Assembly: GCA_963674755.2 (NCBI GenBank)
Contig: CAXXVS010000003.1
Location: 1,216,001-1,280,000 of the forward strand
Length of the DNA: 64,000 bases
Source of the DNA: Desulfobacterales bacterium
GTDB lineage: Bacteria; Desulfobacterota; Desulfobacteria; Desulfobacterales; UBA5852
Reading direction: 5' to 3'
Positions 2,071-52,200 of the stretch are shown here, piece by piece; positions within the stretch are counted from its first letter, which is position 1, and each line of letters begins with the position of its first letter. A model generated the notes under the pieces. The model was not told the origin of the DNA and made no database searches. It saw only the letters and a list, made by a program, of their open reading frames with translations. Position numbers and translations under genes: made by a program.

Positions 2071-4184
2071 TCAACAAGTCATCTATCATTTTAGGGGTAA
2101 TACTCCTGGCGGGAATCAGCGGCGGACTGGTCGCACTCCCCCCGGTAGGCCCGGGAAGCGATGCGGTCTATGCCGCCGCAGCCCCGGAAACCGCCGCCAA
2201 GGAGACCCCGGCTGCCAAATGGTCGGCGCCGGACCAGGTGGCCGCCCTGGAACGGGCCCGGGAGACCCTGCCCTTCGTGGAAGCCGTCAAGGATGAGTGC
2301 AAGCTCTGCCGCCAGATGCGGCTGCGGGAGATGGGGCTTGGCACCAAGGACATCACCCACAACTACGTCGTCCTCAACAGCCCCATCATCAACACGGAGG
2401 AAGATCATTACGGACCGGTGCGCTTCATGCACGGCAAACACGCCTCCCAGATCCAGGACTGCGCGGTCTGCCACCACTACCGACCCCTGGCGGAAGACGC
2501 CAGCGAAACCACCCGCTGCTCGGCCTGCCACCAGGAAGCGTTTCGCCAGGACCATCCGGAGCGCATCGGGTTGAAGGCCGCCTATCACCAGCAGTGCATG
2601 GAATGCCATCGGGAGATGAACCAGGGCCCGGTGGACTGTATTGGCTGCCACGACAAGAACGCCCCCGACCACAAGGACAAAATCCAGTTGACCGCCGACG
2701 CGACCCCTTTCCAGGTGACCGCTGAGTGTCTGCGCTGCCACAAGGAGGCCGGCCAGGACATGCTGCAAACCGCCCACTGGAAGCTCAAGGGGCCGTCGCC
2801 TTATACTCTGGGCCACAGAAAGGAGGTCGAAATCGGGAAAAGCACCATTGCCACGAACAACTTCTGAATGAGCATCGCCAGCAACGAGGCTCGTTGCACC
2901 AGTTGTCACGTCGGCTATGGATGGAAAGATGCTTCTTTTGACCTCACGGATATGAGCAAGATCGATTGCCTGGTGTGTCACGACACCACCGGCACCTATA
3001 AAAAAGTCCCCACCGGCGCCGGTATGCCCGATCCGGAAGTGGATCTGGTGGCGGTGGCCAAAGCGGTGGGACCCACTTCCCGCAAAACCTGCGGAACCTG
3101 CCACTTCAACGGCGGCGGCGGCGAAGCGGTCAAACATGCCGATCTCTCCCGCCAGTTGTTGACGCCGGACCGCAATTGCGATGTGCATATGGGCGGCTAT
3201 GATTTCCAATGCACCGAGTGCCATCGCACCCGCAACCATAAAATCGCCGGACGCAGTTCTTCGGTTGCGGTGGTTGAAAGCAGTTTTTCCTGCGAAAACT
3301 GCCATACGGCCAATCCCCACCGGGGGGACGGTCTGCTGGACCATCATTTGAACAAGCACAGCCAAACCATCGCCTGCAACACCTGTCATTCCCCGGTCTA
3401 CGCCAAATGCAAGCCCACCAAGGTGTTCTGGGACTGGTCCAAGGCCGGAGACGTGGACCGCAAGCCCCAGAAGGACAAATACGGCATGCCGGACTATAAC
3501 TGGAAAAAAGGGGAATTCCGCTGGCAGGAATCCGCCAAACCCGTCTATGCCTGGGACAGCGGCTTCACCCAGCGCGTGCTGATCGGTGACAAGACGGATT
3601 GGCGAAAAGGGCCGATCAACATCTCCGAACCGGTCGGATCCATCAAGGACCCCAACTCCAAGATCGCGCCTTTCAAGATCATGAAGGGCATCCAGGCCGT
3701 GGACGCCGAATACGACTACCTGCTCGTGCCCCATCTGTTCCCACGGAACAAGGAGGACAAGACCGCCTACTGGAAGAACCGTGACTGGCAGAAATCTTTC
3801 GCGGACGGGATGAAGGCCGCCGGCTTGAAGTACAGCGGCACGTACGAATGGGCCACCTCCCAGATGTATTGGCGGGTGGAGCACGAAGTCATGCCGGCCG
3901 ACATGGCCCTCTCCTGTGTTCAGTGCCATGCCAGTCTGCAGTCCGAGGAGCGCACCTGCGACCGCTGCCACCAGGACAACCGCGCGGTGAATTTCAAAAA
4001 AATCGCCCACAAGGGAACCGACTTCAGCTACATGGCCTCCAAGGGGCGCGATGTGAGCCACCTCATCGGCACCACGGACTATATTGACTTCAAGGCCCTG
4101 GGCTACAAGGGCGACCCCATCATCTATGGCGGCCGCTTCAAGAAGCTGCCCATGGGGTACAAGGCCGAAGCGGAAAGAGAGTAG
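2067..4184 (+). CDS. 13-heme c-type cytochrome (c3-like tetraheme domain fused to an octaheme tetrathionate reductase-like domain); probable selenoprotein, TGA 2865-2867 read as Sec, 705 aa
   Basis: ORFs 2067..2867 and 2868..4184 are in frame and read ..TNNF-TGA-MSIASNEARCTSCH.., matching the OTR-family NNFC..SNxxRCTSCH motif; 13 CxxCH; signal peptide only on the first part; hairpin after the TGA. Confidence 0.85.
2881..2897 (+). promoter_or_regulatory. Putative bacterial SECIS hairpin
   Basis: GCAACGA-GGC-TCGTTGC: 7-bp perfect stem, loop starts with G, 20 nt after the in-frame TGA. Confidence 0.75.
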
Positions 4185-36700: not shown

Positions 36701-38367
36701 TCATCGGGAACGCCATCGCCATCCTTATCCGGACAGGCCCGGATCGAATAGCGCGGCTTGCCGCCTTTGGCGAACTTGCTGGTCCAGGCGATCAGGATTT
36801 TATTGCCCTTGACCTGGAAGACCGGTTTCTTGCAGTAGCCATAGTAAGGCTCGCCATTGGCCAGGGTGAACGAACTGCGGTCGGCCATGCGCGAGATGTT
36901 CTTGCGTTTCCAGGTGTGGCCGTCGTCCCGGGACACAGCCGCCCAGACGTCGTGGGCGCCGGTTTCGGGGTCCGCATCGCAGAAGGTGGCGATGATCGGT
37001 TTGGCTTCGGTGGCCGTTCGGATCAAATTTCCATCTTCATCATAGTAAGGGATCGCGGGGGTCCCGGTCTCATCTGTATAATCCACTGGATCGCCGTTGG
37101 CCTTGAGAGCCGGGAACCAGACGCCCATGATGTTGAGCTTGGCCTTAGCGCTGGCCAGCTCTGGCGTGCGTGAGACGCGCTTGCGGAACATGGACGAGCT
37201 CGTGGATTTGCCCAAGTGGGCCTGGGCGTCTTCAGCTGAGACGGCCACCAGGCCAGTTTCGCTCATGGCACGGGCTTCGGTGATGGTCGCCTGGATGATG
37301 TCTTCCACCATTTCATCATCGCTGAAATTGATACTTTCCAGCCCAATGCCTGCCATGGCAGCGGTAAAGGCAGCGGCCACCGTATCGGTAATCAGGATGC
37401 CTTTTTGCGGGGTCGCATCCGCATCCAGGCTTTGGAGCAGGCGGGCCATGTTGATGACCCGCGGGTCGTCGAGGTCGCTGTTGGCGAACATGTCCAGCGG
37501 GGAGATTTTGTGGTCCACCAGGGTGCTGCCGATGGGGATGCCGCCGATGGAGAGCTCCACGGTCTCGCCCGGGAAATAGTCGAAAGCCCCGGATTCGTCA
37601 GTCAGCCCGTTGTGGGTCGGGGTCTGGAAGGTCATACCTTCCACCGGCGAGTCGATGAAGTGGGCCCGCCGCGGGTGGGCCATCTCGTAGGTGGCGAAGC
37701 CCCAATGGCTGAGGATTTTCTGTTTGAGGAAGCCGTTGACGTGGTTGTGGCGTTCGCGGTTGGCGTTGCCTTTGACAACGATGTGACGGACTTTGCCGAG
37801 ACCCGATACCAGGGCTTCGCTTTCTGGTCCCGTCGCCTCGAATTCCGGATCGACCATCCAGACATCGCGTTGGGAAAGAATTTTCCCCCTGATGCGGTCC
37901 ACAAAAACAAAAACCCCATGGACGCACAGGTTTTGCAGCCGCAGCGCCTCATAGGGCTGCCCCCAACGAAAATCCATGTCCTCTTCCAGATCGAGGACCA
38001 AGGCATACTGGCCGGCGGGCTCCTCGTATTGCACCCGGTAGGGGAAGACGTCTAGGTCGGGCGTACCGTTCGGTTTGAGGGGTACCGGATCGTTGCCCAC
38101 GTAGATGTCGAGCTTCTTGATTTTCCATTCGCCGCTGGCGTCCTGGCAGGTCAGATCTTCGGGCGTTACCCGGATTTGCAGCTTGACGCGGGTGTTCCAG
38201 ATCGCGACGCTACCGGTGGCGGGGTAGGTCAGCCAACCATCGTCGGTTAACTCGCATCGGTAGAGGTTGTTCTGCATGAGGCCGCCGGGACCTTGGTAAG
38301 CCCAACCCAAGGTCGGCAGGAGCGCGAGTAGGAGCCCTGTAATCAAACAACGATGGTGAAATTTCAT
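33724..38367 (-). CDS. Giant secreted protein, 1547 aa; Asp-box propeller-like scaffold (resembles choice-of-anchor O proteins) with two CxxCH
   Basis: Signal peptide MKFHHR..LGWA; Asp-boxes SRDDGHTW, SFDGGATW; RRDANQ, WQEDPKG, NHKTDIWYS, YENARR; CTNCH and CVSCH. Confidence 0.8.
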   Translation of the reverse strand: MKFHHRCLITGLLLALLPTLGWAYQGPGGLMQNNLYRCELTDDGWLTYPATGSVAIWNTRVKLQIRVTPEDLTCQDASGEWKIKKLDIYVGNDPVPLKPNGTPDLDVFPYRVQYEEPAGQYALVLDLEEDMDFRWGQPYEALRLQNLCVHGVFVFVDRIRGKILSQRDVWMVDPEFEATGPESEALVSGLGKVRHIVVKGNANRERHNHVNGFLKQKILSHWGFATYEMAHPRRAHFIDSPVEGMTFQTPTHNGLTDESGAFDYFPGETVELSIGGIPIGSTLVDHKISPLDMFANSDLDDPRVINMARLLQSLDADATPQKGILITDTVAAAFTAAMAGIGLESINFSDDEMVEDIIQATITEARAMSETGLVAVSAEDAQAHLGKSTSSSMFRKRVSRTPELASAKAKLNIMGVWFPALKANGDPVDYTDETGTPAIPYYDEDGNLIRTATEAKPIIATFCDADPETGAHDVWAAVSRDDGHTWKRKNISRMADRSSFTLANGEPYYGYCKKPVFQVKGNKILIAWTSKFAKGGKPRYSIRACPDKDGDGVPDECETCAGSGENEKCGPDYPYDDPYVADDFWGVSGPQRSVDYTEQGYPEEGEVPYSAVWTCRGVIVTQAEIDRGGWWADKEVGDIVWFKPERLTSGRRDANQVFMGAADGAGFAITWQEDPKGLRPGEAKGPGPGWGGATANHKTDIWYSYITWADHAQLDENFVAGGDPEHPVQYDDEGNEIAWTNRPKALVPMSLPVRISDNDAVNTNNAELLDADGNPIAAVSAGDITYETANLTRCVKFEGGGTIVTPDDPDALSADYAVLRAVPSDHSSTMNCTNCHVPYDTDPHGENPTQAAPVPLVVVNDGAGEYLGGFTNSDCVSCHYNHVVPRDRVIAVSYGLDEAVKCAECEAMGGIWKDGTQEGGEIIEAYYPYDPYPYIQPDPDDTKDGSHRYITEVTMDNFPWLQQDLWSYENGISPDGIGLYTKTNYQGAERTVAVATDGRLLDGNTSATRPNLFLQTYTKKDGTKSAWAIMAYEETKGLGSGPSETTGTGEQPQDGSGYDPYESVPDNGKNAIYHSFDFTQPDLVSAGTILNLPETDEYGNPVYAQEPEYLGSDPIYDAEGNITGYEPIPNPLAGQQILDWKGDPILAYENARRPRFILQSKASAFGGTKTDGSFKQPDNSGTVLIVLYKEGEEGAGRPSDIMMRRCVVKNEDGTIKKGNPWSPANFLPGAQNVSTVMPGTTWINPDRSESAKGDGVKVCDWIQPEECLTWKSGVNPYEDARAHRGAIRGDFVIMGYSYCPNWAASRKAHDKYDFYIRRSFDGGATWTTDPDYDGDVTHIDYFFDPEGVSGAELDAEGNDVTEPTKHYTVDTVYQGGGVYEPARNVSLIKNNKVSVIEPRIVAVPGTIKVNGVWTGIAEDKQDPDVFYLAYGTSTNLPDVEKAPEDLFLSFSLDRGNTLVEDTWVVNPDSDGNHADETVSGWYRLAKGDQEQGEVQIRMTPNGERFYGVWLDEGEEGSDIMFRRLMPTEFPANVPATATGAETTVIIE

Positions 38368-38509
38368 CCTGCCCCCTTCCTTTTGGTTTGTTTCCGTTCG
38401 CATGCGAAATGAGATGGGTTGACCTTTCCTTGCGGGCGATCAACAGAAGCGCCCATGTTGTCAAAATCGGCTAAGAACTTTTGTGGGATGAATCGTCAGG
38501 GGTAGGACT

Positions 38510-38778: not shown

Positions 38779-39588
38779 ATGCCTTTGGATCATACGAACG
38801 ACAGGGCGCGGATCATATACTTCTCCCACGGCGGCGGGCCGCTGCCGATTCTTGGAGATGCGAGCCACCGGGCCATGATCGCCTTCATGCAGGTCCTGCC
38901 GGACCAGCTCGAAAGGCCGGAGGCGGTCGTGGTGATCAGCGCCCACTGGGAAGTGCGTGTCGCTACGGTATTGGGGCATCGCGCGCCCGGCATGTTCTAC
39001 GACTACTACGGGTTTCCGCCGGAAGCCTATCAAATCAACTACCCGGCTCCGGGAAACCCCGGCCTGGCGGAGAAAATTGCGGCGTTGCTGAGCAACAGCG
39101 GCATCTCCGCCCAAATCGATTTCGAGCGGGGCTTCGACCACGGCTTGTTTATTCCCATGGCAATGATGTACCCCCAGGCGGAGATTCCCATGCTCCAGCT
39201 ATCCCTTATCCGGGGGCTGAACCCGGCTAATCATATCGCCCTGGGCCGTGCTTTGCGTAACTTGCGAAGCGAGAACATCCTGGTGGTCGGTTCCGGATTT
39301 TCATTTCACAATATGCGGGCCTTCTCCTGGCAGGGGACGAAAGCTCCCGACCCCCGCAACGATGCCTTTCAAGATTGGCTTGTCGATGTTTGCACCGGCC
39401 CGCATTCCCAAGAGGAGCGCGAAGCCCTGTTGATCGAATGGGAACAAGCCCCCCATGCCCGCTACTGCCATCCGCGGGAAGAGCATCTTCTCCCCCTGCA
39501 TGTTTGCCTGGGGCTGGCCGACCGGCCCGCGGAAGTGATTTTCGATGATAACATTCTTGGCAAGCGGGCGGTGGCTTTCAAGTGGTAG
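38779..39588 (+). CDS. Class III extradiol dioxygenase (LigB/DODA/YgiD-like)
   Basis: SHGGGP, ISAHW, YDYYGFP, RGFDHG, GSGFSFHN, HPREEHLLPL. Confidence 0.9.
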   Translation: MPLDHTNDRARIIYFSHGGGPLPILGDASHRAMIAFMQVLPDQLERPEAVVVISAHWEVRVATVLGHRAPGMFYDYYGFPPEAYQINYPAPGNPGLAEKIAALLSNSGISAQIDFERGFDHGLFIPMAMMYPQAEIPMLQLSLIRGLNPANHIALGRALRNLRSENILVVGSGFSFHNMRAFSWQGTKAPDPRNDAFQDWLVDVCTGPHSQEEREALLIEWEQAPHARYCHPREEHLLPLHVCLGLADRPAEVIFDDNILGKRAVAFKW

Positions 39589-40025: not shown

Positions 40026-40379
40026 TCAATACTTCCCGTAACGCAGGCGGGTGCCATAGTCGAGGGATAGACGGATTTCCTGGGGCGACAATTCCGGCGG
40101 GAAATACACACCGGATATTTTCGCTCCGTGAATGCTGGCCCCCTCGAGACGGCAGGTGCTCAAGTCCAACCCCCGCAAGTCCGTCTGCCGGAAATAGCAG
40201 CCCGAAAAGTCAATGCCTTGCAGATTGAACTGCCGCAGGTCCTGGCTGCGGAAATCGAGATTGCGGAAGTCGCAGCAGTTTTCCTCGGTACATCGTGCAT
40301 TGAAGGCGTCGATGTCTTCATCCAGGATGAGCTGATAGAGCTTATTGCGGGTATCCCTGTGTGGCGGTTGATTTTCCAT
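40026..40379 (-). CDS. Pentapeptide-repeat protein
   Basis: FRNLD-FRSQD-LRQFN-LQGID-FSGCY-FRQTD-LRGLD repeats. Confidence 0.85.
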   Translation of the reverse strand: MENQPPHRDTRNKLYQLILDEDIDAFNARCTEENCCDFRNLDFRSQDLRQFNLQGIDFSGCYFRQTDLRGLDLSTCRLEGASIHGAKISGVYFPPELSPQEIRLSLDYGTRLRYGKY

Positions 40380-40585
40380 GTAACGCTCCCTTTTTCGGCA
40401 ATTGCCGTTTTGGTTCGCCGACGACCCTGCACGACTATGGCGCGGCCGTCCTATTTATTAACGGTAAAATGCCGGAAAACTTGAATTGGATAGGCCTCTT
40501 CCCGATGATCGGCCTCACGGTCCGTCGAGCATACGACGCGGTTGACCCGATGCCGAAATCGATCTTCTGTGGCCTCTCAAACGGC

Positions 40586-40758
40586 TGTAGCATGACACAA
40601 TTGCGGGAGACCCATAATTGTGTCGCCGCGGCCGGACACCTTTCTGCGAAAACTTCCCCGATTGCTTTCTGCTTCAATACGAATCAGCGTCATTCTTAGG
40701 AACGCAACGATCTGTCCCTCTTTCAATGATGAACGACTTCGGTGGCACAGGATTTGTA
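40586..40758 (+). promoter_or_regulatory. Bipartite enhancer plus sigma54 promoter of the cytochrome operon
   Basis: TGTAGCATGACACA (40586), AGACCCATAATTGTGTC (40608), TGGCACAGGATTTGTA (40743). Confidence 0.7.
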
Positions 40759-40929
40759 AAACCACCATGCCACAGGATCGGCAGACAAGGTCTCCCAAGT
40801 GCGGCAGGATAGTGCAAGACCCCCGGGTCCGTGACGCCCCGCAGCGTTTCCCCCTTTTGCTTTCAAACCGGAGCATTTTCGATAACGCCCAGACGGCGAA
40901 CGATCTTCATGAAAGGAGAACACACCAAA

Positions 40930-41820
40930 ATGGCCAAAAAAATTCATCGACGGGAATTCCTGGCCGGCGGCCTCGGGGCCGGCGCCATGGCGCTGGGGCT
41001 GGGAATCAGACCGGCCCCCTTGCAGGCGAAGGAGTCCGAACCGGAGTCCATTCCGTTTCCGCTGCCCCCACCCGTTGTCCCGCTGGACGTCGCTGCCGTG
41101 CGCCAGACGGCCTATGATCGCTATTTTCAAGGGGGCTGCATGTACGGCGCTGCGGCGGCGCTGGTGGAAGGGCTGCGGGAGGCCTGCCGACCCGCCGCCG
41201 ACGGGAGCGACTACACGGATTGGGATCTCATCCCCACCGGCATGTTCAAATACGGCAGCGGGGGCGTGGCCGGCTGGGGGACGATCTGCGGCATCTTAAA
41301 CGGCACGGCGGCGGTATTGGCCATGGCGGACTATGGTGGCCTTATCGATCAGGTGATGGGATGGTACACGATGCAATGCTTTCCTCTGGCGGACAGCGAC
41401 GATCTAGAGACGTCCGATCGCTCCTACCGGGCCCTGGCGGATAGCGAGGTGCCGGCTCACACGGTATCCGGTTCGCCCTTGTGCCATATCTCCATTGGCA
41501 AATTTTGTGCAGCCGCCGGCATTACGCTCAAGGACGCTTCGGCGGAAGGGATGAATTATAAACAGGACCGCTGTAGCAAAGTCTGTGCGGAGACAGCGGC
41601 TCTGGCGGCCTCGCTGATCAATGCCCAGTTGGCCGAAAGCGCGGAAACCCTTTACACCACACCGGAGTCCTATGCGTCCTGCCTGACCTGCCACGGGACC
41701 ATAAAAGATCAGGTGGGCAAGATGAACTGTCATGGATGCCATTCCACCTCCGAGGTTACGCTTGTCGGGAGCGGGCATGAGCGCAATGTGACAGCACCCA
41801 AGAATCGCAAAAAGCGTTAA
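40930..41820 (+). CDS. Tat-exported C-GCAxxG-C-C-family diheme protein (split-Soret cytochrome c-like)
   Basis: HRREFL Tat motif; GCMYG, GWGTICG, SPLCH, DRCSKV; C-terminal CLTCH and CHGCH. Confidence 0.8.
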   Translation: MAKKIHRREFLAGGLGAGAMALGLGIRPAPLQAKESEPESIPFPLPPPVVPLDVAAVRQTAYDRYFQGGCMYGAAAALVEGLREACRPAADGSDYTDWDLIPTGMFKYGSGGVAGWGTICGILNGTAAVLAMADYGGLIDQVMGWYTMQCFPLADSDDLETSDRSYRALADSEVPAHTVSGSPLCHISIGKFCAAAGITLKDASAEGMNYKQDRCSKVCAETAALAASLINAQLAESAETLYTTPESYASCLTCHGTIKDQVGKMNCHGCHSTSEVTLVGSGHERNVTAPKNRKKR

Positions 41821-41905
41821 TCCTGCATCTGGCGCTCCGGCGCCCCAAACCACTGTTTTCGCTAAACCAATCACCCGCCCAAACGGGCGGGCGGCGAAGA
41901 CCGCT

Positions 41906-44323
41906 ATGACACCAATAGCCGTATCAGATTATCACCAGAGACCGTCTGTGGTCGTCGGCACGGGGTTGATCCTGTTTACGATCCTGTTGGTCTGGTGCTT
42001 GCCGGCCATAGCCAAGATTCGCACCTGCGGACCGATTTACCTGCGGGATGCCGACGGGCGGGTCATCAACCCATTGACCGGGGAGAATGCGGATCAACCC
42101 TTCAGCACACGGCAGACCTGCGGCGCCTGCCATGATTACGAGCGCATTACGTCCGGCTACCATTTTCAACAGGGTTGGGATCGCATCCGGGATGATTTCT
42201 CCAAGGAAAAGCCCTGGGTGCTTTCCGACGGCATGATGGGCAAGCAGTGACCGCCCTCTTTTCGCCAGTTGGCGAAAAAGACAAACCAAGTCCCGGAAGC
42301 GATCGACCTCACCGTGTTCGAGTGGGTGACGGCCGGCAGCAATCCCCTCAAAGGCAAACCCGGCTGCGGCGGCTGCCACCCCGGCGGCGGCGGGATGGAA
42401 CGCGATCGCGACGGGCAACGCTACGACCGGCGGCTGGCAGAGCAGCCCGAACTGGCCCGAACATTGGACGGCGACTACCATCGCAGCCAATGGGACCGCA
42501 GCGGGGTGATCGAGGCGGATTGTTTTATCTGCCATCTCCCAGGGTATTACTTCAAGGAACGTATCCGTCAACTCGATCGGTTGAATTTCAAGTGGGCCAT
42601 CGTGGCCGCCACGGGCATCGGGCGGGTGACCGGTGCCGTAAAGGCCGGCGAAACGCCGGAGATTGTCTACAATCGTCGCTACTTCGACGATGACGGCCGC
42701 ATCGTCCTGGATTTGCTCTCGCCCCCGTCATCGGAGAATTGTGTGGCCTGCCATGGCATCGCCGATCTCATTAAACGCGGTTTCTCCTGGAACGAGCGCA
42801 TCAATCACGATGTCCATAATCTTCACGGTCTGGAGTGTGTCCAGTGCCACGCCGGCAACCCGGAGCATAATTTCGCCAAGGGCGATGAAAACATGTCAAC
42901 GGTGCGTGACGATCTCGACAACACCATGTTGACCTGCCGCCAATGCCACATGCAGGGGTTTATGGGGGCGCCCCGGCCGGAGCATACCGGCATCCGCCCC
43001 AACCATCTGGAAAAACTGGGCTGTGAAGTGTGCCACATCCCGGCGGTCTACCGCACGGCCGCCCGGGGGTTGTGCGTGTCCACGGGCAAAGTGGCCAATT
43101 ACCCCATGGCCGGCGCCCAGCACATCGGCGAACGGGTGCGCTGGCAGCCGGATTACCGGCGGGATGCTGACGAGGTACTGAAGCCGGTCAACGCCTTCCA
43201 GGCCAATCTCTATACCAACCGCGACGAAGACGGCCTTTATCATCCGTTGTTCGCCAGGGAGATCGCCGCTGCAGCCAAGATCATGGGCCCGCCGAAAGCC
43301 GCGCCGCAGTCCGATCAGCCCTTGATTCGGGAACCGGAGGACATCCGAGGCATGCTGTCGGCTCTGAAGACGACGCTTACCACGAATCGGCGCTTCGGCC
43401 GTGTTCGTCCGCGCTATCATTTACAGGGACGGATCTACGCCTTGGATGAAGCAGGCCGTCTCGTCGATACCCCGGACACCACCTGGGTGACGGAGGAGAA
43501 GGGGTTCAATATCAGCCACAATGTCGCCCCGACCCACGCGGCCCTGGGTGCCCAGGGGTGCGGCGACTGCCATTTGCGCAGCAGCCATGTCTTCGAGAGC
43601 TGGATTGCCCAGGAGCTGCAATCTCTGGAAACGCACGCCCCTCTGAAAATGAGCGGATTGAGCTGGCGTGGGCGTCCCCTGGCCGACTACCTCAAGGAGC
43701 TGCATGCGCACAATTGGCTGAAATACTACCTCGTTCCCGGATTGTTCACGCTGGTGTTTATCATCGTGGTCCATCGCCTTGTCGGCGGCGGCCTGCGGTC
43801 CGCATCGCTCCTGGGAACATGGACTGTCAACCTGCAGGTGGCCAGAGCTTTGCTGGTCACCTTTCAGGCGCTGGCGATCTCTTTTCTGGCGTTTTCAGGC
43901 CTGGTGTTCTTCTACAACAACATGTCGCTGTTGTTTATCTTCTTCAGCGACATGGAAACGGCCAGCCGTTTGCATGTCGCCATCGGGATCGCCTTCCTGA
44001 TATCAATAGGTCTGGTGAACGTGATTGACCGCCTTTGCGATTTTGCCCCCGGACGCCACCAATCCGGCCGCTACCTTTCCGGGCCCGTCCACCGGAAGTA
44101 TGGACGGGCGGCGGTTCCGGTTTGGCGCTCCTGGACGGACCACCTGGATACGCGCCTCATGTTCACCCTGGCGGTTTCCGGCGGCATCATGCTGTTTCGC
44201 CGTCATTTGGGATTGGAAATCAAATATCTCGTTTCCGCCTGTCACGCCGCCGCTGCGGTGGCTTTCGTGGCGGCCGTTCTGGCCAAGGTCTATTATCGAT
44301 TCACCCGACGGAACACGGGCTGA
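41906..44323 (+). CDS. Octaheme c-type cytochrome with C-terminal cytochrome b-like membrane domain; probable selenoprotein, TGA 42248-42250 read as Sec, 805 aa
   Basis: ORFs 41906..42250 and 42269..44323 are in frame (GMMGKQ-TGA-PPSFRQLAKK); 1+7 CxxCH; hairpin after the TGA; about 5 C-terminal TM helices, two with His. Confidence 0.82.
42257..42281 (+). promoter_or_regulatory. Putative bacterial SECIS hairpin
   Basis: TTTTCGCC-AGTT-GGCGAAAA: 8-bp stem, G at loop position 2, loop 16 nt after the TGA. Confidence 0.78.
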
Positions 44324-44438
44324 ACACCTTCTCTCTCCTGTAGTCCCCTTGGGGACGCCATATGCCTCACTCCTTTTTTCCATACCCCCCCCCTCCATAT
44401 ATACTGAACATCATTCAGGTAGTAAAAAGTTGCCCAAT

Positions 44439-44592
44439 TATGTCGCCTGAGGAATCATTTGACCCACAAATGCGGCATGGACGATTTTCCCCCTGACACA
44501 TGATCGCCCCTTTCCGGGATCAGCTTATAATCACGACAAAAACGTCCGTTAGAAACACCGCTGCCGATATGGTGCGATGGCCCGTTGGAAGC
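44439..44592 (+). promoter_or_regulatory. Possible degenerate enhancer plus sigma54 promoter upstream of the two-component operon
   Basis: Half-site TATGTCGC (44439), TGACCCACAAATGCGGC (44460), TGGCCCGTTGGAAGC (44578, GG-N10-GC). Confidence 0.45.
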
Positions 44593-45012
44593 GATCGGCG
44601 GAAAAATCGCAACGCCGGGTGGCGGGCCGGTTACCGCTAACGCCATCCCAAGATAGGGGGAGTCAACCACTTGCATGCACCATATATAGCGCATTCAGGG
44701 CTATTCCCGGTATCCGATATGAAATTATTTTCTTATTATTAAACGGTCTTTGAGAGCCGCGTATGTCATAATAGATTGATAATATTCAAAAAAAAATGAA
44801 TTTGTCGGGATTGCATGAAATTTGCTTTCACCACAGCTACGATCACTCTCAGACAGACTTCGATCCATTATCGTTCTTGATATCGAGGGTGTTGCCAACG
44901 GCATAGGCAAACCCTGCAAATAGTGTTGATCCATTTAATTCGGTTTAGAGCTTGGCGATGTTCTCCTTGTAGCGCGCCGCTTCCCTTGCGCGCAGACGAC
45001 AGGACGATCCTC

Positions 45013-47107
45013 ATGACCGGTTTGGGCAACCGTTTTCACGAACGATGGTGGGCGAATAACATCTTCTATGTCGGCCTGGCCCTCGGCATTCTCTACTGGG
45101 GGCTTGAATCCGCAATGCACGTCTATATTTTCGATGAAGGCACCCTGGCACAGCAGGTGATCAGCCCGGATGCCCACGAAATCTGGATGCGCCTGATGGT
45201 GGAAGGCCTTCTGGTGGGTTTCAGTTTCTACTGCCAAACCATCATCAACGCCCGGGAGCGGGTGGAAAGCGCCCTGATTCGCCGTGAAAAAGAGGCCAAC
45301 GATATCCTTGAAAACAATCCTGCCGCCATCATGCTCATCGATACAGAGACCCGGCGTATCAGTTGGGTGAACTCCAATGCCGTGCAATTGACCGGCAGTT
45401 CCAAGGAACAGCTCGTCGGTCGCGTCTGCCACGACCATCTCTGCCCTTCAAATCGCGGCAATTGCCCGGTGCTGGACTGGGGGCAGGTCCTGGACCGCTC
45501 CGAGCGGAAATTGATCGCGGCCGAAGGTACCGAGGTCCCCATTTTGAAAAGCGTGACCCGGGTCAACTACAAGGATCGTGAGCATTTGCTGGAGGCGTTT
45601 TTCGATATTACCAAGCAGAAGGAAATGCAGCGGGCCATCAAATCCGCCCATGCCGAACTCGCACAGATTTTTCAGACCGCCTCGGTGGGCATGCGCCTGA
45701 TCGACCGCGATTTCAATATTCTCAAGGTCAACGAAACCTTCGCGCGCCTGTCCGATTTCCCGGCGAATGAAGCCGTGGGCCGCAAATGCTTCGATGTCTT
45801 CTCGGGCGCCAAATGCCATTCGGCGGATTGCCCCCTGATCCAGATCCGCGACGGCCATGATCCTGCTGAATACGAAGTCACCAAGAAACGGACCGACGGT
45901 ACCCAGATTCCCTGCATTCTGCGATCGACCCCCTTCATCGGCCCGGATGGCGAAACCATCGGTATCGTAGAATCCTTTCAGGATATTACCGCCCTGAAGG
46001 CCATCCAGGAGGAGTTGCGGTCCGAGCGGGACAAGCTCCACCGCATCCTGTTCCAGCAATTGGAAGGCGTCGGCATCGTCAATGCCGAATGGCATATCGA
46101 ATACCGCAACGAGACGCTGGATACCATGCTGACCAACGTCGCCGGGCAAAAATGCTACGAGGTGTTCCGCCAGCGCGCAACGCCCTGCGCCCATTGTTAT
46201 ATGAAGGCCTCCATCGCCACGGGCACCATCCAGCGGTGCGAGTTCGATGCGGCCGACGGCAAAAGCTACGAACACACTTACACGCCCTTCGTGGACAGCG
46301 ACTTCCGGAAGAAAGCGGTCATCTCGGTGCGGGATATCACCGAGCGCAAGGCTTCGACCCTGGCGGCGGTACGCTCCGACCGGCTGGCCGCTTTGGGTGA
46401 ATTGGCAGCCGGGGTGGCCCATGAGATCAACAATCCGGTCAACGGGATCATCAACTACGCCCAGATTTTCGTCAACCGGTACCAGACGGACGGAATGATC
46501 AACGATATCAGCGGCCGCATCGTGAAAGAGGGCGACCGGATCGCCCGGATCGTCGAAAGTCTGCTGGCCTTTGCCCGCCAGGACGAAGATGAACGCGCTA
46601 TGACGGCGATCGAGGAGGTCCTGGCGGATTCGCTGACCTTGACGGCGGCCCAGCTGCGCAAAGACGGCATTGCGATCATGCTGGATATGCCGGCCGGTCT
46701 GCCGCCGGTGGAGGTTCACACCCAGAAGATTCAACAGGTCTTTGTGAACCTGATCAGCAATGCCCGTTACGCCCTCAATAAGAAGACGGACAAGGAGACG
46801 AACGGCGGCAAGCAGCTTCGCATCTCCGCCGAAACCGTTGATCAGGAGGGGGGGGGCCTGGCTGCGGATCATCTTCCATGACACCGGCATCGGTATTCCG
46901 GCAGAGGTCATCGACAAAATCATGAATCCCTTTTTTTCCACCAAACCCAAAGGGATGGGGACCGGTCTGGGGCTCAGCATCAGCCATGGCATCATCAACG
47001 ACCATCGCGGAACCCTGACGATTGAAAGCCGCGAAGGTGACTATACGCGTGTTACGATCGATCTGCCGGCAACCGTGCCGGCCGAGGAGGGCAGGTTAGC
47101 GTCATGA
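45013..47107 (+). pseudogene. Membrane PAS x3 sensor histidine kinase, frameshifted at a G9 tract (46848-46856); phase variant or sequencing error
   Basis: AHEINNP H-box and NLISNA N-box in one frame; DTGIG, NPFFSTK and GTGLGL boxes in another frame; G8 would join them. Confidence 0.85.
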
Positions 47108-48804
47108 ACGAGAAAATCCTGGTGGTGGATGACGAAGAGAGTATCCGTTATACGTTCCAGATGTTTCTGGAGGATGAAGGGTACCAGGTAACGACCGCGG
47201 ACAATTACGAGGTAGCCCTCGAGCACATCCAGGCCAGCGAATTCGATCTGGTGTTCATCGATATTATTTTGGAGGGGCGCTCCGGCATCGATTTGCTCCG
47301 CGCCCTGCGCGAACACCGCCCGGGGGTCCCGGTGATCATGATCACCGGGGCGCCGAGCGTCGAAACGGCTTCCGAAGCCCTACGGCTGGGGGCGCTGGAC
47401 TACATCGTCAAGCCGGTGCGCCAGGACAACCTGATGCGGGCCACCACCATGGCCGTTCGCCACAAACAGATGCTGGACGATAGGGAAAGCTGCCGGCAGA
47501 ACATGGAGGCCATTTTTCGCAGCGTCAAGGACGGCATCGTCACCGTGACGGCGGACATGACCGTGATGGAGGTCAATGCCGCGGCGGCGGTCATCTGCGG
47601 TATCCCCAAGGGCGATATTTCACAAAACCCGTTGGCCGCCATGCTGGGCGATTGCAGCGGCGAGTGCCTGAGGGCATTGCATGAGACGCTTAAAAGCCAG
47701 AAGGCCACCCATTTGCACCATATCGAATGCCGCGCCGGACGCCGGCCGGGACAGGTGGTCAGCGTCAGCGTTTCCCCTTTGTTGAGTCGACGCAACAAGT
47801 TTGCCGGGGGCGTTATGGTCCTGCGGGACGAAACACGTCTGCTCAACCTGGAAAGGAACTTGAAGGAACGCCAATTCTACGACCGCCTGATCGGCAATGC
47901 GCCCCGCATGCAGCGGGTCAAAGCGCTGATCAAAGACCTGGCCGGTGTGCCCACCACGGTTTTGTTGACCGGCGAGAGCGGCACCGGTAAGGAGCTGGTG
48001 GTGGACTCCCTGCATTTCCAGGGGGACCGGAGCGACAAGGCCCTGGTCAAAGTCAACTGCTCCGCACTTTCGGACAACCTTCTGGAGAGCGAACTCTTCG
48101 GCCACGTCAAGGGCGCCTTCACGGGGGCGGTCAAGGATCATGTGGGCCGCTTCCAGAAGGCTGATGGCGGGACGATTTTCCTGGACGAGATCGGCGACAT
48201 CTCCCCCAAGATGCAGCTGCGGCTGTTGCGGGCGATCGAGAACATGGAATTCGAGCGGGTCGGCGGCAACACCTCCATCAAGGTGGACGTGCGCATCGTG
48301 GCGGCGACGAACCAGGATCTGCGCCTCAGGGTGGCCCGGGGGCAGTTCCGGGAGGATTTGTTTTACCGGTTGCGCGTGATGGAAATCAATCTTCCGCCAC
48401 TGAGAGAGCGCCGGGAAGACATTCCCCTGCTGGTGAGCCATTTTATCCAGAAATTCAACCGCCGGCTCGGCAAACAGATCAAGACCGTGACGGAAGAAGC
48501 CCTGCGGTCCCTGACCTGTCATGACTGGCCCGGTAATGTGCGCGAGCTGGAAAACATGATCGAGCGGGCCTTTGTCCTCTGTCACCAGTCCACCATCACG
48601 ATGGACCACCTGCCCGAAGAACTGCTGTCCGGATCCCGCTCGCCGATGGGCGGTGCCTATCCGCTCACCGAAGACGAGGAAGTTTCCTCCATTCTGTCCG
48701 CCCTGGAGAAGACGGCCGGCAACAAGAGCCGGGCCGCCCGTCTTCTGGGGTTCAGCCGCAAGACGATCTATCGCAAGATCGAAAAGTATAATTTACACGT
48801 TTGA
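47104..48804 (+). CDS. NtrC-family sigma54 response regulator (REC-PAS-AAA+-HTH)
   Basis: ILVVDDE; GESGTGKE; GAFTGA; WPGNVREL; Fis HTH. Confidence 0.93.
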   Translation: MNEKILVVDDEESIRYTFQMFLEDEGYQVTTADNYEVALEHIQASEFDLVFIDIILEGRSGIDLLRALREHRPGVPVIMITGAPSVETASEALRLGALDYIVKPVRQDNLMRATTMAVRHKQMLDDRESCRQNMEAIFRSVKDGIVTVTADMTVMEVNAAAAVICGIPKGDISQNPLAAMLGDCSGECLRALHETLKSQKATHLHHIECRAGRRPGQVVSVSVSPLLSRRNKFAGGVMVLRDETRLLNLERNLKERQFYDRLIGNAPRMQRVKALIKDLAGVPTTVLLTGESGTGKELVVDSLHFQGDRSDKALVKVNCSALSDNLLESELFGHVKGAFTGAVKDHVGRFQKADGGTIFLDEIGDISPKMQLRLLRAIENMEFERVGGNTSIKVDVRIVAATNQDLRLRVARGQFREDLFYRLRVMEINLPPLRERREDIPLLVSHFIQKFNRRLGKQIKTVTEEALRSLTCHDWPGNVRELENMIERAFVLCHQSTITMDHLPEELLSGSRSPMGGAYPLTEDEEVSSILSALEKTAGNKSRAARLLGFSRKTIYRKIEKYNLHV

Positions 48805-48939: not shown

Positions 48940-49115
48940 TGTGTCACGACACAATGGCCCTGATACACAAATGTGACATGGCGCATGTCTTGGGCGGAAC
49001 AATTTCCGGATGCGACCCGAATTCCTTTCTTCTAAAGCCATAACGCTCTGTAAATACATCGAAAAATAAGTTTCAAGAATAGGCCGTCGACGCCCGGTTT
49101 GGCATGGAACTTGGA
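48940..49115 (+). promoter_or_regulatory. Bipartite enhancer plus sigma54 promoter of the giant gene 49260-53702
   Basis: TGTGTCACGACACA palindrome (48940), TGATACACAAATGTGAC (48961), TGGCATGGAACTTGGA (49100). Confidence 0.72.
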
Positions 49116-49259
49116 GTAGACACCGCGCAGGCGGCAACAACGGCCGGCATGAACGGAAGCGCGGGTTTTAAAACCCCGGTAGAGGTGAAATTTTCCATAA
49201 GAAGACCAATTGAGTTCGCTGAAGCATACAAGCGATCCAGAAGAGAAAGGAGACGAGCA

Positions 49260-52200
49260 ATGCGTCGAAAACAATCGTTTTGGGTGGCCTTGGTGGCTAT
49301 TTGCCTTCTGGGGACGATTTCGCCGGCGATGGCCGACTGGGGCGATGTCACCAACAAATTCAGCATATCGACCTCGGCACCTGTCGCCAATACGAACGTC
49401 GATGGCACGTTCACCACAATCGACGTGACCGTCACATTTTCGGCGGATCTCGATGACGCCATCATGGGGGATCTGCGCCTGCTGGTCGTACCGCTGGATG
49501 GAACGCCCGCCCCTCGCAATCCGGACGGCGAGATGGGGTTGGATGGGTCGAATCCAATAATTTATTACATACTCCCCACAGGCGAAGACGGCGAATTGGT
49601 CCCTAACGAGTCTGTGACCATTACAATGGAAATGGAAGGGAACGTGTCGTCACCGGATTTCAACTTCAGTATCGAAGTCAACGACGAATCCATCGATACC
49701 ACCATCTTTCGCAAAAAAATCTCAAAGACACCGGAGTATTACAGCGGTGAAGGGGGCATCGAGGTGATGCCCCTCTATGTCGAGGCCCGGAGCACCCAGG
49801 GGTATGCCTACACAAGGGATACCCTTAGCGGAGACCTGATTCCCTGTTGCCCGGATGAATGCCCGAATGGCGAGGAGGGGGCCGACGACGTCTGCGGCAT
49901 CTGCGACCCATCCTGCGCCGCATCGGGATACGCCACCGTCAAGCCCCTCGTCGTCACCTATGTCCAGGAGGAGGAGGAGGCCCCTTTCAACAGTGTACCG
50001 AGTTACGATCCCAATGAAGACGGGGTGGCGGATGAAGGTGATCGCTATGCCCACGACATTTATGCGGCGGTATCCTACGATGAAGGATTGACCTGGAAGC
50101 GGCGCAACATTTCGCGCACCTCACTGAAGTCCTCCTTCACCCTGCCCAATGGCGTGTCCTATCCGGGGGATTCCGAGGACGCCGACCTCACTGTCGTAGG
50201 GCCATACGCCTTCGTCACCTGGGTCGACAAATACTGCCGCAGCGGGGATCCCTGGGATATGGAAGCTCAGGACATCGATGATATCTACCAGGTGACCGGT
50301 TCCCAGAAGTCGGTGGACTATCTGGATGTCACCGGCGATGAGGACCCGCGGCCCGACCTGGGGGTGCGGCCCTTTTCCTGCCTGTGGGGCGCCCGGGGCG
50401 TGTTAGACATGGAACCGGAAACCGCCGACGGTGAGGCCAACCCCAATTACGGCACCATCGTCTGGTACAAGGCCGAGCAGCTTTCCACCGGCCGGCGGGA
50501 TGCCAAACGCAACTTCAACGCCGGCATCGAACCTGTGCACGATCCTAATTTGAATGAAAACAACCTGGTCGAGGGTACCGGTGGCTTCGCCGTCTCCTGG
50601 CAGGAGGATCCGAAAGGGCTCAAGACCGGCAAGGGGCGCGGTCCCGGGGCCGGCATGTCCGGCGCCTGCGTCAACCACAAGACCGATATCTGGTACAGCT
50701 ACATCGGCTGGAGCGACTTTGCCACCGTCGACGAGGATTTCGTCTCCAACAGCGACGGCGATGCCGTGCAGGATGGCGACGGGGAATCCATGTCCAATTA
50801 CTTCTGCACCGCCTGCCCCTATGTCTACGATCCGGAGCTCGGCGACGTGGAACATGACATCCTGGCGGGAACGTCCTTCGACAGCTTGCCCGAAGACTGG
50901 GTCTGCCCGCTGTGCGGCGCCGCCAAGGCGGATTTCGAAAAGGACGCCAAGCCCCATGCCCTGGTGCACTTCCATCCGCCGGTGCGGGTAACCGACAACG
51001 CGGTGTGTCGCGAGCGCAACCCCACCGAGATCATGGGGCACGTCCACACCGCCGACCATATCGCCGTCACCGACTGCGACTACTACTACGAGGGCGGCAC
51101 CACCAACCAGCCGCTGGCCTGGGACGATCTGCCCGACGATTGGGCCTGCCCCAAGTGCGGCGGAACGAAAGACACCTTCGAAGCTGAGGCTATCTTCATA
51201 AAATATCGCAACGAGGGTGCGCCCTACTGCGAGTGGTTCGCCAACAACCCACGGGTAGACGGCGACGGCAACGAGGTCTCGTCGACAGAGGATGCTTACG
51301 CGGTGGCCTACTACACCACTGATGAGGGCGAGCCGCTGGACGGTAACACCGGGGCCTCCCGGGCCAACCTCTCCCTGGTGAACTGGCAGGGTGAGACCCT
51401 GGCCCTGATGGCCTACGAGGAGACCAAGGGCGTCGGCGCCGGCAGCGACAAGGAGGCGGCCGCCATGGAGCAGGCAGCGCCCCTTCCGCTGGTGAAAATG
51501 GATGACGGCACCTGGGAGGCCGGCTTTACCAACAGCGACTGCCGAAGCTGCCATTATAAGAATGTGGTGCCCCGGGATCGCGTGATTCCGGTCAGCGACC
51601 AAACAATCTGTGAAGAGGTGAAGGGTGGGGTCTGGAAGGAGGAACTCGAAGCGTACTTCCCTTACACCGGCTATCCCTACATCACCGATCAGTCGGTGGA
51701 CGTCGGTCAGCTGGCCGCCGACGGAGTATCCTATGACACCAGCAACGCGGTCAAATGCGTCAAGTTTCAGGGCGGCTGGGGCATGTACCCCCGGGACTAC
51801 GCCCAGATCTACGAAGGCGACAATTACTACAACCTGCCCGACCACATGCCCGGGTGGCATCAGGAGGCGCTGGACTGCACCGGCTGCCACCTGCCATACA
51901 ACACCAAGGATTCGGACGGCGACACGATCAACGATCGTGCCGACATGTGTCCCGGCACGCCCGCCGGCGCCGATGATATCGATATGAATCCTGAAAGCGT
52001 CAACTACGGTTGTTCGGCATCCGAGAGTCCCGACGACCAGGACAACAACAAGGACGAGCCGGATCGCTTCCGGCACGGCAAGAACCTCTACTACCACCAC
52101 TTCGTCTTCAATGATCCGGACTTGGCGGCCATCGGCCACGGCGACCAGATCAACGGCTTCAGCCGGGACGTGCTCGGCCAGGATGATGAGGGCAACGACA

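Follow-up and report, generated by a model that had tools for sequence, protein, structure and literature searches.

This study investigated whether positions 41906-44323 of a Desulfobacterales DNA window (64,000 nucleotides, the whole stretch analyzed) hold two broken genes or one gene with a recoded stop codon, and what the product of such a gene might do. A preliminary description of the locus had proposed a single-chain, quinol-linked selenoenzyme paired with an upstream split-Soret-like protein.

An in-frame TGA at a conserved site

Translation of 41906-44323 (plus strand, as are all features below unless stated otherwise) yielded 805 residues with a single internal stop, the TGA that had been noticed at 42248-42250, which is codon 115 (GMMGKQ-U-PPSFRQLAKK). 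The chain comprises a predicted signal peptide, an OTR-fold octaheme cytochrome c domain, an anchor helix, and an FdnI-like cytochrome b domain, and its terminal stop is also TGA. Contigs from two other studies (X4, 41931-42278; X5, 42151-42334) carry the internal TGA unaltered, and it is therefore not an assembly error. A single RNA run contained two short contigs of the gene, neither spanning the TGA, from which transcription is not demonstrable.

Codon 115 was TGA in 41 of 80 GTDB loci. In the pooled set, it was TGA in 61 of 110 loci and a sense codon in 49; TAA, TAG, and Trp did not occur. This set represents 110 of 120 loci, the window's own included, after the exclusion of seven duplicates, L056 (TGA), L076 (Gln), and L122, in which the site is absent. 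Reading frames were open on both sides of the codon across the TGA loci. Cys occupied the site in 16 of the 110 loci, and 33 had neither selenocysteine (Sec) nor Cys; Sec, Cys, and Tyr together accounted for 83. Among full-length database homologs, Tyr predominated (23/34), and Ser, Gln, Leu, Thr, and Cys also occurred. The TAG stops reported within L118 and L119 lie away from site 115, which is Cys in both. The preliminary description had held that Trp or another non-Cys residue in homologs would speak against recoding. Trp was never found, but because homologs carry Tyr, Ser, Gln, Leu, and Thr, this objection applies in part.

The downstream hairpin and the false start codon

The TGA is followed by a bacterial SECIS-type hairpin at 42259-42278 (TTTTCGCC-AGTT-GGCGAAAA), as had been described, with an 8-bp stem and an AGUU loop placed 16 nt past the UGA. 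Its 38-nt stretch folded with an energy of -11.0 kcal/mol (z -2.57), a value equaled or bettered by 4 of 200 shuffles; the signal fell to z -1.67 over 63 nt, where 11 of 200 shuffles did as well. These values fall within the constraints on bacterial SECIS elements, namely a loop of 3-9 nt, a stem of 4-16 bp, a G within the first two loop positions, a distance of 16-37 nt from the UGA, and an MFE of -7.5 or lower (PMC13188914). When FRQLAK was recoded synonymously according to host codon usage, stems of at least 7 pairs carried 3.3% of the weight.

The results revealed a hairpin of at least 7 pairs downstream of the site in 51 of 61 TGA loci, compared with 0 of 49 others. The exact codons CGC CAG TTG GCG were found in 39 of 40 TGA loci, whereas none of 11 non-TGA loci encoding the identical RQLAK had them. 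The covariation that had been suggested as a check was less informative: two-sided change affected 2 of the 8 stem pairs (3 cells), slid controls gave equal or higher numbers, and compensatory covariation is weak, since there is little variation in the stem. Loss of the hairpin in non-TGA relatives is stronger evidence than covariation. When a covariance model was built on the hairpin region, the window scored 58.7 bits, by construction because the model derives from it. The equivalent site of non-TGA relatives did not exceed 29 bits, and the Ser forms came out highest among them. The model matched no other gene in 36 sources, and Rfam returned no matches over 40300-45000 at E 1.

The TTG that gene callers use to start the second half (42269-42271) does lie inside the hairpin, in the loop and 3' stem. 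A Shine-Dalgarno word precedes this start in 0 of 41 TGA loci, and the downstream open reading frame has seven CxxCH motifs without an export signal. Databases cut the family in two, under the names 'formate dehydrogenase subunit gamma' or 'hypothetical': 86 of 120 homologs are truncated after the TGA, 73 of 120 start at the L/M-A-K-K of the false TTG position, and the split entries include RefSeq records of cultured strains (WP_124327750.1 and WP_236889995.1). Cultured carriers represented in databases include Desulfoluna limicola, Fundidesulfovibrio agrisoli, Desulfonema ishimotonii, and Ammonifex thiophilus.

Selenium machinery and evolution of the site

The window's genome encodes SelA, two SelB, two SelD, and two tRNA-Sec. 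This machinery, together with the conservation of the TGA and the loss of the hairpin in non-TGA relatives, strongly supports the single-chain selenoprotein proposed earlier. The TGA at 42248 is almost certainly read as selenocysteine, and the two "broken" genes therefore form one chain. We infer with near certainty that SelB and tRNA-Sec read through UGA115 under the direction of the hairpin and insert Sec there.

The selA gene was present in 38 of 41 TGA genomes, compared with 21 of 39 non-TGA genomes; because these 21 retain selA, their Sec losses were not forced. Changes between Sec and non-Sec forms numbered five by parsimony, or one gain and seven losses, on trees with weak deep nodes from which the short L044 and L058 were excluded. 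Sec and a frozen SECIS were held across at least three clades. A well-supported clade of 17 loci lost Sec (Cys/Tyr/Ser/Arg) and has His at residue 41 wherever that residue is covered, and Hydrogenedentes forms keep Cys41 with Leu, Gln, or Asp at 115. Of 401 genomes sampled from the phylum, 58 encode a homolog, and no relative turned up in viral contigs. The family is absent from NCBIfam 20 and from the accessible part of the 2026 selenoprotein catalogue. Judged from sequence, it is a widespread, uncatalogued selenoprotein family.

The octaheme domain and the position of Sec115

The joined frame contains the eight CxxCH motifs previously counted, at residues 72, 154, 206, 279, 311, 344, 373, and 552. 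It begins with a predicted Sec-pathway signal peptide (residues 1-36, 41906-42013), whose signal role and cleavage site we infer from a hydrophobic helix at 14-35. Hydropathy peaked at 2.43 over residues 14-32, the structure model has a helix at 13-35, the hydrophobic stretch ends in AIA, and homologs start at the same place. Heme 1 (CGACH, 42119-42133) is the sole heme motif upstream of the TGA. Heme 2 (CGGCH, 42365-42379) is equivalent to the OTR catalytic heme by profile alignments, and motifs 3-8 (42521-43573) are accompanied by invariant distal His304, 321, 360, 367, and 538. Heptaheme relatives without heme 2 also exist.

The structure model of the gene product (pLDDT 84.9) matched the folds of 1sp3 and 1kqf_C. 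In a structure search of 48,161 chains, OTR was the sole match, with Z 12.2 and rmsd 5.0 over 275 residues; the runner-up reached Z 3.8. The fold match to OTR (1SP3) gave Z 13.3 and rmsd 4.5 over 334 aligned residues. A PDB sequence search with the single protein gave no matches.

Around heme 2, D287-x-x-K290 (42764-42775) aligns with OTR D150/K153; K290 was present in 102 of 110 loci and D287 in 83. Lys125 (42278-42280), a candidate heme 2 ligand or pocket residue, was near-invariant (106/110). Where the heme 2 motif is present, 62 of 69 proteins have this Lys, and where it is missing, 13 of 65 do; K290 likewise co-occurred with heme 2. Alignments disagree on whether K125 corresponds to OTR Lys56, one of them placing Ser107 there. 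K113 was rejected for that role because it varies in relatives (R, G, N, T, S). Residue 41 (42026-42028), near the mature N-terminus, was Cys or His in 107 of 110 loci, with Cys in 53 of the 61 TGA loci, His in seven, and Ala in one; all Tyr115 forms had His41 (6/6 loci, 25/25 proteins). This Cys/His alternation resembles that of an axial ligand, and Cys41 is a candidate heme ligand.

Profile alignment with short-loop OTR relatives placed U115 exactly on the Cys of their NxFC motif, and three residues off in another group; the first residues of a truncated model put 119 on OTR 64. This Cys (OTR Cys64) was present in 48 of 49 OTR-like sequences, and its position was TGA in 14 of the best 30 OTR loci. 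Canonical OTR profiles set Lys56 on K124/K125 and Cys64 on residue 139 rather than on U115, with low column confidence. We moderately favor a position of Sec115 at the invariant Cys64 of OTR, beside catalytic heme 2 and Asp287/Lys290.

The membrane domain

A linker transmembrane helix (43715-43786) joins the periplasmic domain to an eroded FdnI-like cytochrome b domain (43826-44314; family profile against 1kqf_C, E 1.1e-29). The window's domain retains His690 and His780, has Val651 and Lys794 in place of the other two FdnI His, and lacks the NAGQK motif and the C-terminal tail. We take His690 and His780 to serve the periplasm-side heme b, positions 651 and 794 the cytoplasm-side heme b, and NAGQK to be the quinone motif. 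The four His were present in 90 of 120 homologs, as was N[AS]GQK in 90 of 120, and the erosion is common to 22 sequences of one group. The transmembrane helices thus contain His as described, but His fills no more than two of the four positions that supply ligands in FdnI. The term "quinol-linked" fits the typical family member but is doubtful for the window gene, because two of the four His and the quinone motif are missing.

Gene neighborhood

The upstream split-Soret-like/C-GCAxxG-C-C protein (40930-41820) is TAT-exported, with a TAT motif, two CxxCH motifs, and no TGA, and scored 102 bits against NF047622 (cut-off 400). Its pairing with the selenoprotein gene holds for the window's sub-clade (the window, L001, L180, and L181) but did not recur in any other family locus examined. 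A complex prediction of residues 119-568, a construct without heme 1 and Sec, with the split-Soret-like protein yielded an ipSAE of 0.00 in both runs, below the 0.32 mark, which speaks neither for nor against a complex. A putative sigma-54-like -24/-12 element (40743-40758) precedes the two-gene unit and recurs upstream in L001, against a background of 0.003 per 400 nt. No plus-strand terminator was found between the two genes. An intergenic hairpin at 41872-41893 scores on the minus strand only.

Among the TGA loci, we found no conserved operon apart from sigma-54 regulators of a generic kind and synteny that kin share by chance, and no conserved sulfur-metabolism neighbors. Forms without Sec lie in clusters of multiheme and porin genes, and the 17-locus clade that lost Sec adjoins CbcL-like genes. 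The description of this gene as the second Sec cytochrome implied a first, and that one is real (window 2067-4184).

Proposed function and alternative explanations

Our best guess is a periplasmic sulfur-compound oxidoreductase. The chain would be exported by the Sec pathway, gain eight c hemes in an OTR-type fold, and remain anchored by five transmembrane helices. Like the Sec of MccSep, Sec115 would use its selenol for nucleophilic attack on a sulfur compound, namely polysulfide, thiosulfate, tetrathionate, or sulfite; the chance that the site takes a sulfur substrate is slightly short of even. The remaining hemes would link the Sec115 site to heme b, one of them probably ligated by His/Cys41 and of low potential. 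FdnI-type b domains keep periplasmic chemistry apart from cytoplasmic quinone chemistry (10.1101/2022.08.31.506072). In typical members, electrons would traverse the membrane through two b hemes and reach menaquinone at a site on the cytoplasmic side, and the enzyme would accordingly build proton-motive force by periplasmic oxidation, like FdnGHI, or spend it reducing a low-potential sulfur acceptor, like Phs. The window copy belongs to a derived group that would keep the periplasm-side heme b alone and probably exchange electrons without membrane crossing, perhaps with the co-encoded split-Soret-like protein.

The label "selenoenzyme" is plausible; the tolerance of Tyr, Ser, Gln, Leu, and Thr at 115 is unusual for an essential nucleophile and counts against a catalytic Sec. 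We give even chances to the whole reading, that is, read-through, an exported OTR-fold octaheme, Sec115 at heme 2, and a sulfur oxidoreductase wired to heme b. A broader proposal is doubtful: a one-chain respiratory sulfur oxidoreductase without Mo, FeS, or flavin in many Desulfobacterota, with Sec at or ligating a heme c and eight c and two b hemes leading to menaquinone, in which proton-motive force would drive polysulfide/thiosulfate reduction or come from sulfide oxidation.

Sec115 might instead be the axial selenolate ligand to the iron of one heme c, likeliest at the sixth site of heme 2, with very low potential and with thiolate or phenolate in the Cys and Tyr forms. The three residues that fill most loci are all anionic iron ligands, Tyr is frequent in full-length proteins, and if the OTR Lys56 position is Ser107, heme 2 is left with His158 of its own motif and an open distal position. 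We consider this explanation unlikely: seven non-motif ligands (41, 86, 304, 321, 360, 367, and 538) are already available to seven hemes, the Ser, Gln, and Leu forms retain all hemes, and the Sec of MccSep adjoins the iron rather than binding it. If Sec does bind iron, the family would provide a rare example of selenolate ligation of heme c in nature.

An MccSep-like site reached by convergence, in which Cys41 ligates a heme and Sec115 and Cys41 cleave S-S bonds there rather than at heme 2, appears slightly less likely still. It is consistent with the prevalence of Cys41 in TGA loci, with the His41 and multiheme/porin clusters of the 17-locus clade, as if turned to electron transfer, and with the pairing of C239 and U325 in MccSep (PMC13510729). 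The TGA loci with His41 or Ala41 argue against it, as do the Hydrogenedentes forms that combine Cys41 with Leu, Gln, or Asp; the 41/115 correlation is not independent because kin share states.

A CbcL-like conduit from the quinone pool to periplasmic carriers, with Sec as a non-catalytic redox-protective or regulatory residue, would explain the two-domain plan, the many residues tolerated at 115, the heptaheme relatives, and the multiheme and porin neighbors of non-Sec forms. This explanation is improbable given the retained OTR-type heme 2 with K125, D287, and K290 and a Sec and SECIS that would be costly for a passive residue. It is very improbable that the TGA acts as a genuine stop, whether in a pseudogene, between two proteins, or with leaky read-through, or that it encodes Trp or Cys: the two annotated frames, the eroded b domain as possible decay, and a hairpin that is modest when taken alone are outweighed by a stop that is always TGA at the same codon between open frames, sense-codon relatives that are single chains, a downstream part without export, a terminal stop that is itself TGA, and an erosion common to a whole group.

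Comparison with known systems

FdnI (formate dehydrogenase-N gamma subunit, 1KQF chain C) shares the four-helix b domain. Typical family members reach 126-154 bits against TIGR01583 (cut-off 115.85), hence their database name, whereas the window copy reaches 15 bits, lacks two of the four His and NAGQK, and has no FdnG/FdnH neighbors. CbcL of Geobacter (nine-heme c and diheme cytochrome b) is likewise a single chain of periplasmic multiheme c and FdnI-type b domains without a Mo, FeS, or flavin subunit; it is an electron conduit with no Sec reported, whereas the window family has an OTR-type catalytic heme. A CbcL-like neighbor (L029), compared in place of true CbcL, matched the family in the b domain alone. 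MmcA of Methanosarcina (TIGR04314, the best weak NCBIfam match at 38 bits against 250) is also an OTR-related, membrane-associated multiheme c protein, but it is without heme 2 and the Lys (PMC11024163), whereas the window family keeps heme 2 and has Sec.

OTR (PDB 1SP3; TIGR04315) shares the fold, the order of the eight hemes and distal His, and the D-x-x-K pocket motif. A GenBank-annotated Sec form exists, and Sec-OTRs such as window 2067-4184 use the Cys64 position. The window protein differs in scoring 32 bits against a cut-off of 375 (six homologs, 31-47 bits), in an identity of about 17-20%, in long insertions around heme 2, in an unclear Lys56 equivalent, in Arg at the OTR His154 position, in a candidate Cys/His ligand at 41, and in its fusion to five transmembrane helices, OTR being soluble. 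The OTR substrate is unsettled, since the protein is dispensable for tetrathionate respiration and nitrite/hydroxylamine activities dominate in vitro, and the role of the fold in the cell has yet to be settled (PMC12949373). A relative that is wired to the membrane, bears Sec, and has natural Sec/Cys/Tyr/Ser and Cys/His variants opens this function to testing and directs attention to sulfur chemistry at Cys64. The natural Sec, Cys, Tyr, and Ser variants, together with the probable one-heme-b form and its split-Soret partner, would make up a series for comparison.

MccSep/ExtKL (GSU2937-2936, NF040886) is, to our knowledge, the sole characterized Sec multiheme enzyme. It is a Sec polysulfide reductase of Geobacter sulfurreducens whose Sec acts as a nucleophile at a Cys-ligated heme c, beside the iron (PMC13510729). 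The window protein gave no NF040886 match at E 0.1, and none was found in the genome. MccSep/ExtKL is a soluble tetramer with five hemes, an Ig-like domain, and a C-terminal Sec, whereas the window protein is membrane-anchored, with eight hemes in an OTR fold and Sec after heme 1. Both are periplasmic multiheme c selenoproteins of Desulfobacterota that annotators split at the UGA, with a SECIS-like hairpin, Sec/Cys homologs, and possibly a Cys-ligated heme together with Sec.

Selenocysteine is almost certainly encoded at TGA 42248

The target gene at 41906-44323(+) encodes 805 residues, and its sole internal stop is the TGA at 42248 (codon 115; U115 or Sec115), which, with its sequence context, was confirmed as given in the preliminary description. 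Of the eight CxxCH motifs, one lies upstream of the TGA and seven lie downstream. A hairpin at 42259-42278 carries an 8-bp stem and an AGUU loop 16 nt past the TGA codon, with G at the second loop position, and satisfies all constraints of the bacterial SECIS model (PMC13188914, section 5). Its energy was -11.0 kcal/mol, and 4 of 200 shuffles were equally good; over a longer 63-nt stretch, the hairpin was weaker (11/200 shuffles as good). The TGA was unchanged in contigs covering it from two other studies, which excludes an assembly error.

Of the 707 homologs in the databases, the best 120 were compared; the site was absent from 86, and 73 of these began at L/M-A-K-K, the start point that corresponds to the TTG inside the hairpin and is used in many database homologs. 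This is the signature of a mis-called family. We kept 80 of 96 confirmed GTDB loci; TGA occupied the site in 41 of the 80, and TAA or TAG in none. Order- and phylum-wide searches contributed 40 more loci, and after removal of duplicates the set comprised 110 loci, including the window's own and leaving out two further loci (one TGA, one Gln). The site residues were Sec (61), Cys (16), Gln (7), Leu (7), Tyr (6), Ser (6), Thr (2), and others (5), and Trp was found in none of the 110.

The key control was synonymous codon choice at loci encoding RQLAK after the site: the exact codons CGC CAG TTG GCG were used in 39/40 TGA loci but in 0/11 non-TGA loci. A stem of at least 7 pairs with G opening the loop was detected in 51/61 TGA loci compared with 0/49 others, and in a divergent clade the hairpin was shifted to 22 nt from the TGA codon. 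Covariation, which had been proposed as a check of the hairpin, was weak (2/8 pairs) and no better than in slid controls. The selA gene was present in 38/41 TGA-form genomes and 21/39 sense-codon genomes; most of these genomes are MAGs, and related genomes do not count as independent. These results indicate that Sec is almost certainly inserted at TGA 42248.

The target's genome encodes SelA, two SelB, two SelD (one TGA each), and two tRNA-Sec. In this doubled Sec machinery (C1:776949-791365; C2:1226048; C2:1902839; C3:2083622), SelA is single copy and both tRNA-Sec score above the Rfam cut-off. The weaker, GC-rich tRNA sits immediately ahead of the second selB; the ORF on the other side of that selB resembles, by eye, cysteinyl-tRNA synthetase.

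The cytochrome domain has the OTR fold

No curated family fitted the target: the best NCBIfam scores were 38 bits for MmcA (cut-off 250) and 32 bits for octaheme tetrathionate reductase (OTR; cut-off 375), and there was no NCBIfam match to MccSep/ExtKL (NF040886). In an AlphaFold2 model built from 104 sequences (pLDDT 84.9), residues 38-598 matched OTR 1SP3 with Z 13.3 and rmsd 4.5 over 334 aligned residues, and the C-terminus matched cytochrome b of hydrogenase-1 (Z 10.9) and FdnI, the formate dehydrogenase-N gamma subunit (Z 10.2). When residues 119-600 were modeled alone (pLDDT 90.4), 1SP3 was the sole match in a set of 48,161 chains, with Z 12.2 against 3.8 for the runner-up. A profile alignment of the family with OTRs (E 7.5e-21) kept hemes and distal His residues in the same order, and D287-x-x-K290 aligned with OTR D150/K153, which we take to be distal-pocket residues. 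K125 was found in 62/69 proteins with the heme 2 motif versus 13/65 without it, and K290 in 50/69 versus 8/65. Heme 2 is the catalytic, Lys-ligated heme of OTR, as described in PMC11024163.

A large unnamed heptaheme group (P0187-P0268; motif TQ[IL]P[LV]S.R.W.G) lacks heme 2, K125, and K290. Many of its members are fused to cytochrome b, and the group is a bacterial parallel to MmcA.

The evidence on the placement of Sec115 was split. With canonical OTR profiles, OTR Lys56 fell, at low column confidence, on K124/K125, a placement under which U115 would be a new position rather than OTR Cys64. In the truncated model, however, the chain start (residue 119) coincided with OTR residue 64; residues 111-122 of the target are predicted to form a small hairpin. 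The Cys of NxFC (Cys64), present in 48/49 OTR-like sequences, aligned exactly with U115 in four short-loop OTR relatives and lay three residues off in a second group of seven. The Cys64 position was TGA in 14 of the 30 top-scoring OTR loci, including the window's other Sec cytochrome. On balance, we somewhat favor placing U115 at the Cys64 site, next to heme 2.

That other cytochrome, a Sec-type OTR at 2067-4184(+) (TGA 2865-2867; TIGR04315 494 bits, above cut-off), has a cytochrome c3-type tetraheme N-terminal domain and Sec at the NNF-U (Cys64) site, and is preceded by HmcB-like and HmcC/NrfD-like genes. The Sec form of OTR has been catalogued before, as GenBank-annotated (2026 review, Table 1).

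Residue 41 and the non-Sec forms

Residue 41, which the preliminary description had overlooked, was Cys or His in 107/110 loci, Cys in 53/61 Sec forms, and His in all Tyr forms. Together with His86, 304, 321, 360, 367, and 538, it provides seven candidate distal ligands for the seven non-catalytic hemes; Sec forms thus probably contain a His/Cys-ligated heme.

One clade, well supported and comprising 17 loci, has apparently lost Sec (Cys, Tyr, Ser, or Arg at the site), carries His41, and adjoins genes of multiheme, porin-like, and CbcL-like types. Ser in this clade is encoded by TCG or TCA, with a remnant hairpin still in place, which suggests that Ser forms descend from TGA forms. In Zixibacteria and Ignavibacteria, the genes next to Cys/Tyr/Ser forms (L022, L025-L027, L029, L031-L036, L047) encode a CbcL-like multiheme-cytochrome b protein, a large exported protein without a name, and several small multiheme cytochromes, an arrangement similar to that of extracellular electron transfer clusters. 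In the Hydrogenedentes forms (L060-L077), which are 1070-1220 residues long, Cys41 and the four-His b domain are retained and the Sec site is occupied by Leu, Gln, Asp, or Asn; their genes lie downstream of a TAT Gfo/Idh/MocA oxidoreductase and ApbE. In six Sec forms (L140, L141, L143, L144, L120, L121; frames of ~630-760 codons), no cytochrome b domain was detected; the selenocytochrome thus also occurs stand-alone or differently anchored.

The membrane domain and the upstream neighbor

The family profile matched FdnI (E 1.1e-29). Among the best 120 of 707 homologs, all four heme b His were kept in 90, the N[AS]GQK motif was present in 90, and 18 shared the two-His state of the target. In the target, the periplasm-side pair, His690 and His780, is all that remains of the heme b His. 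Val651 and Lys794 stand in place of the cytoplasm-side pair, and neither the quinone motif nor the C-terminal tail is retained. The residue roles are those we presume from FdnI, and the numbering fits the family-FdnI alignment. The proposed quinol link through a transmembrane b pair therefore describes the family but not the target. The 18 homologs and four loci fall within one 23-leaf group whose node is weak (support 0.20; 0.82 with its sister).

The upstream gene product is TAT-exported and split-Soret-like, with two CxxCH and no TGA. The pairing claimed for it was found in the window, L001, L180, and L181 (48% identity in L181), but is not family-wide: a scan of 120 family loci with its profile gave no further case, the family profile found no other such pair among 100 split-Soret-like loci, and no split-Soret-like gene lies near L037 or L039 of the one-heme-b group. 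Four pairs of database proteins, all within the window's sub-clade, come from contigs of identical length and thus appear to share contigs. As a gene neighborhood, the pairing is therefore real but local, and it coincides with quinone-site loss in part of the one-heme-b group.

A sigma-54-like element at 40743-40758(+) precedes the gene pair, as in L001, and a PAS kinase and sigma-54 activator (44923-48804(+)) follow it; in 4/39 TGA loci, a similar element lies no more than 400 nt from the family gene (background 0.003 per 400 nt). A GC-rich 9-bp hairpin at 41872-41893, between the two genes, is terminator-like on the minus strand only. A LigB-type dioxygenase (38779-39588(+)) and a pentapeptide-repeat protein (40026-40379(-)) upstream are conserved next to the family only as far as the nearest relative. 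Two giant choice-of-anchor O proteins (NF040591) carry CxxCH motifs: one, exported, at 33724-38403(-) and one, apparently exported and with rubredoxin domains, at 49104-53702(+).

Proposed mechanism and relation to known systems

Sec115 most likely acts as a selenol nucleophile in the heme 2 pocket on a sulfur compound; we infer this substrate and the direction. The heme chain would connect the pocket to heme b. In MccSep, polysulfide is cleaved by a Sec that neighbors a Cys-ligated heme c (PMC13510729). The substrate of OTR itself is unsettled (PMC12949373). FdnI-type b domains, among them those of Fdn, Hyd-1, and Phs, have their quinone chemistry on the cytoplasmic side (10.1101/2022.08.31.506072); members with four His could therefore either build up or consume proton-motive force. 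In two-His proteins such as the target, electron exchange would be confined to the periplasmic side.

Among the alternatives, we regard direct Se-Fe ligation by Sec115 as unlikely and a joint Cys41-Sec115 site as slightly less likely still. A plain CbcL-like conduit is improbable, and a true stop at TGA 42248 is barely credible.

The 2026 review (Table 1; 119 prokaryotic selenoprotein families) includes ExtKL, a CXXCH beta-barrel protein, and the GenBank-annotated Sec-OTR, and has no multiheme-cytochrome b fusion; none occurs in the portions covered of deep-Sep (PMC12013277), a 2022 review (PMC9312934), and a cytochrome survey (PMC11492766). Nor was such a selenoprotein fusion found among the papers listed from a largely open-access literature; PMC10153276, 10.1101/2022.02.24.481543, PMC5701242, PMC4215793, and 10.1101/2021.04.15.440034 were covered in part. 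The ingredients are known singly, namely a Sec multiheme enzyme, Sec on an OTR fold, and a CbcL-type fusion, whereas the combination of Sec, OTR-type fold, and cytochrome b fusion appears undescribed. The present analysis contributes a probable mapping of the Sec site onto OTR, a candidate ligand switch between Cys41 and His41, and a one-heme-b sub-clade with a split-Soret neighbor.
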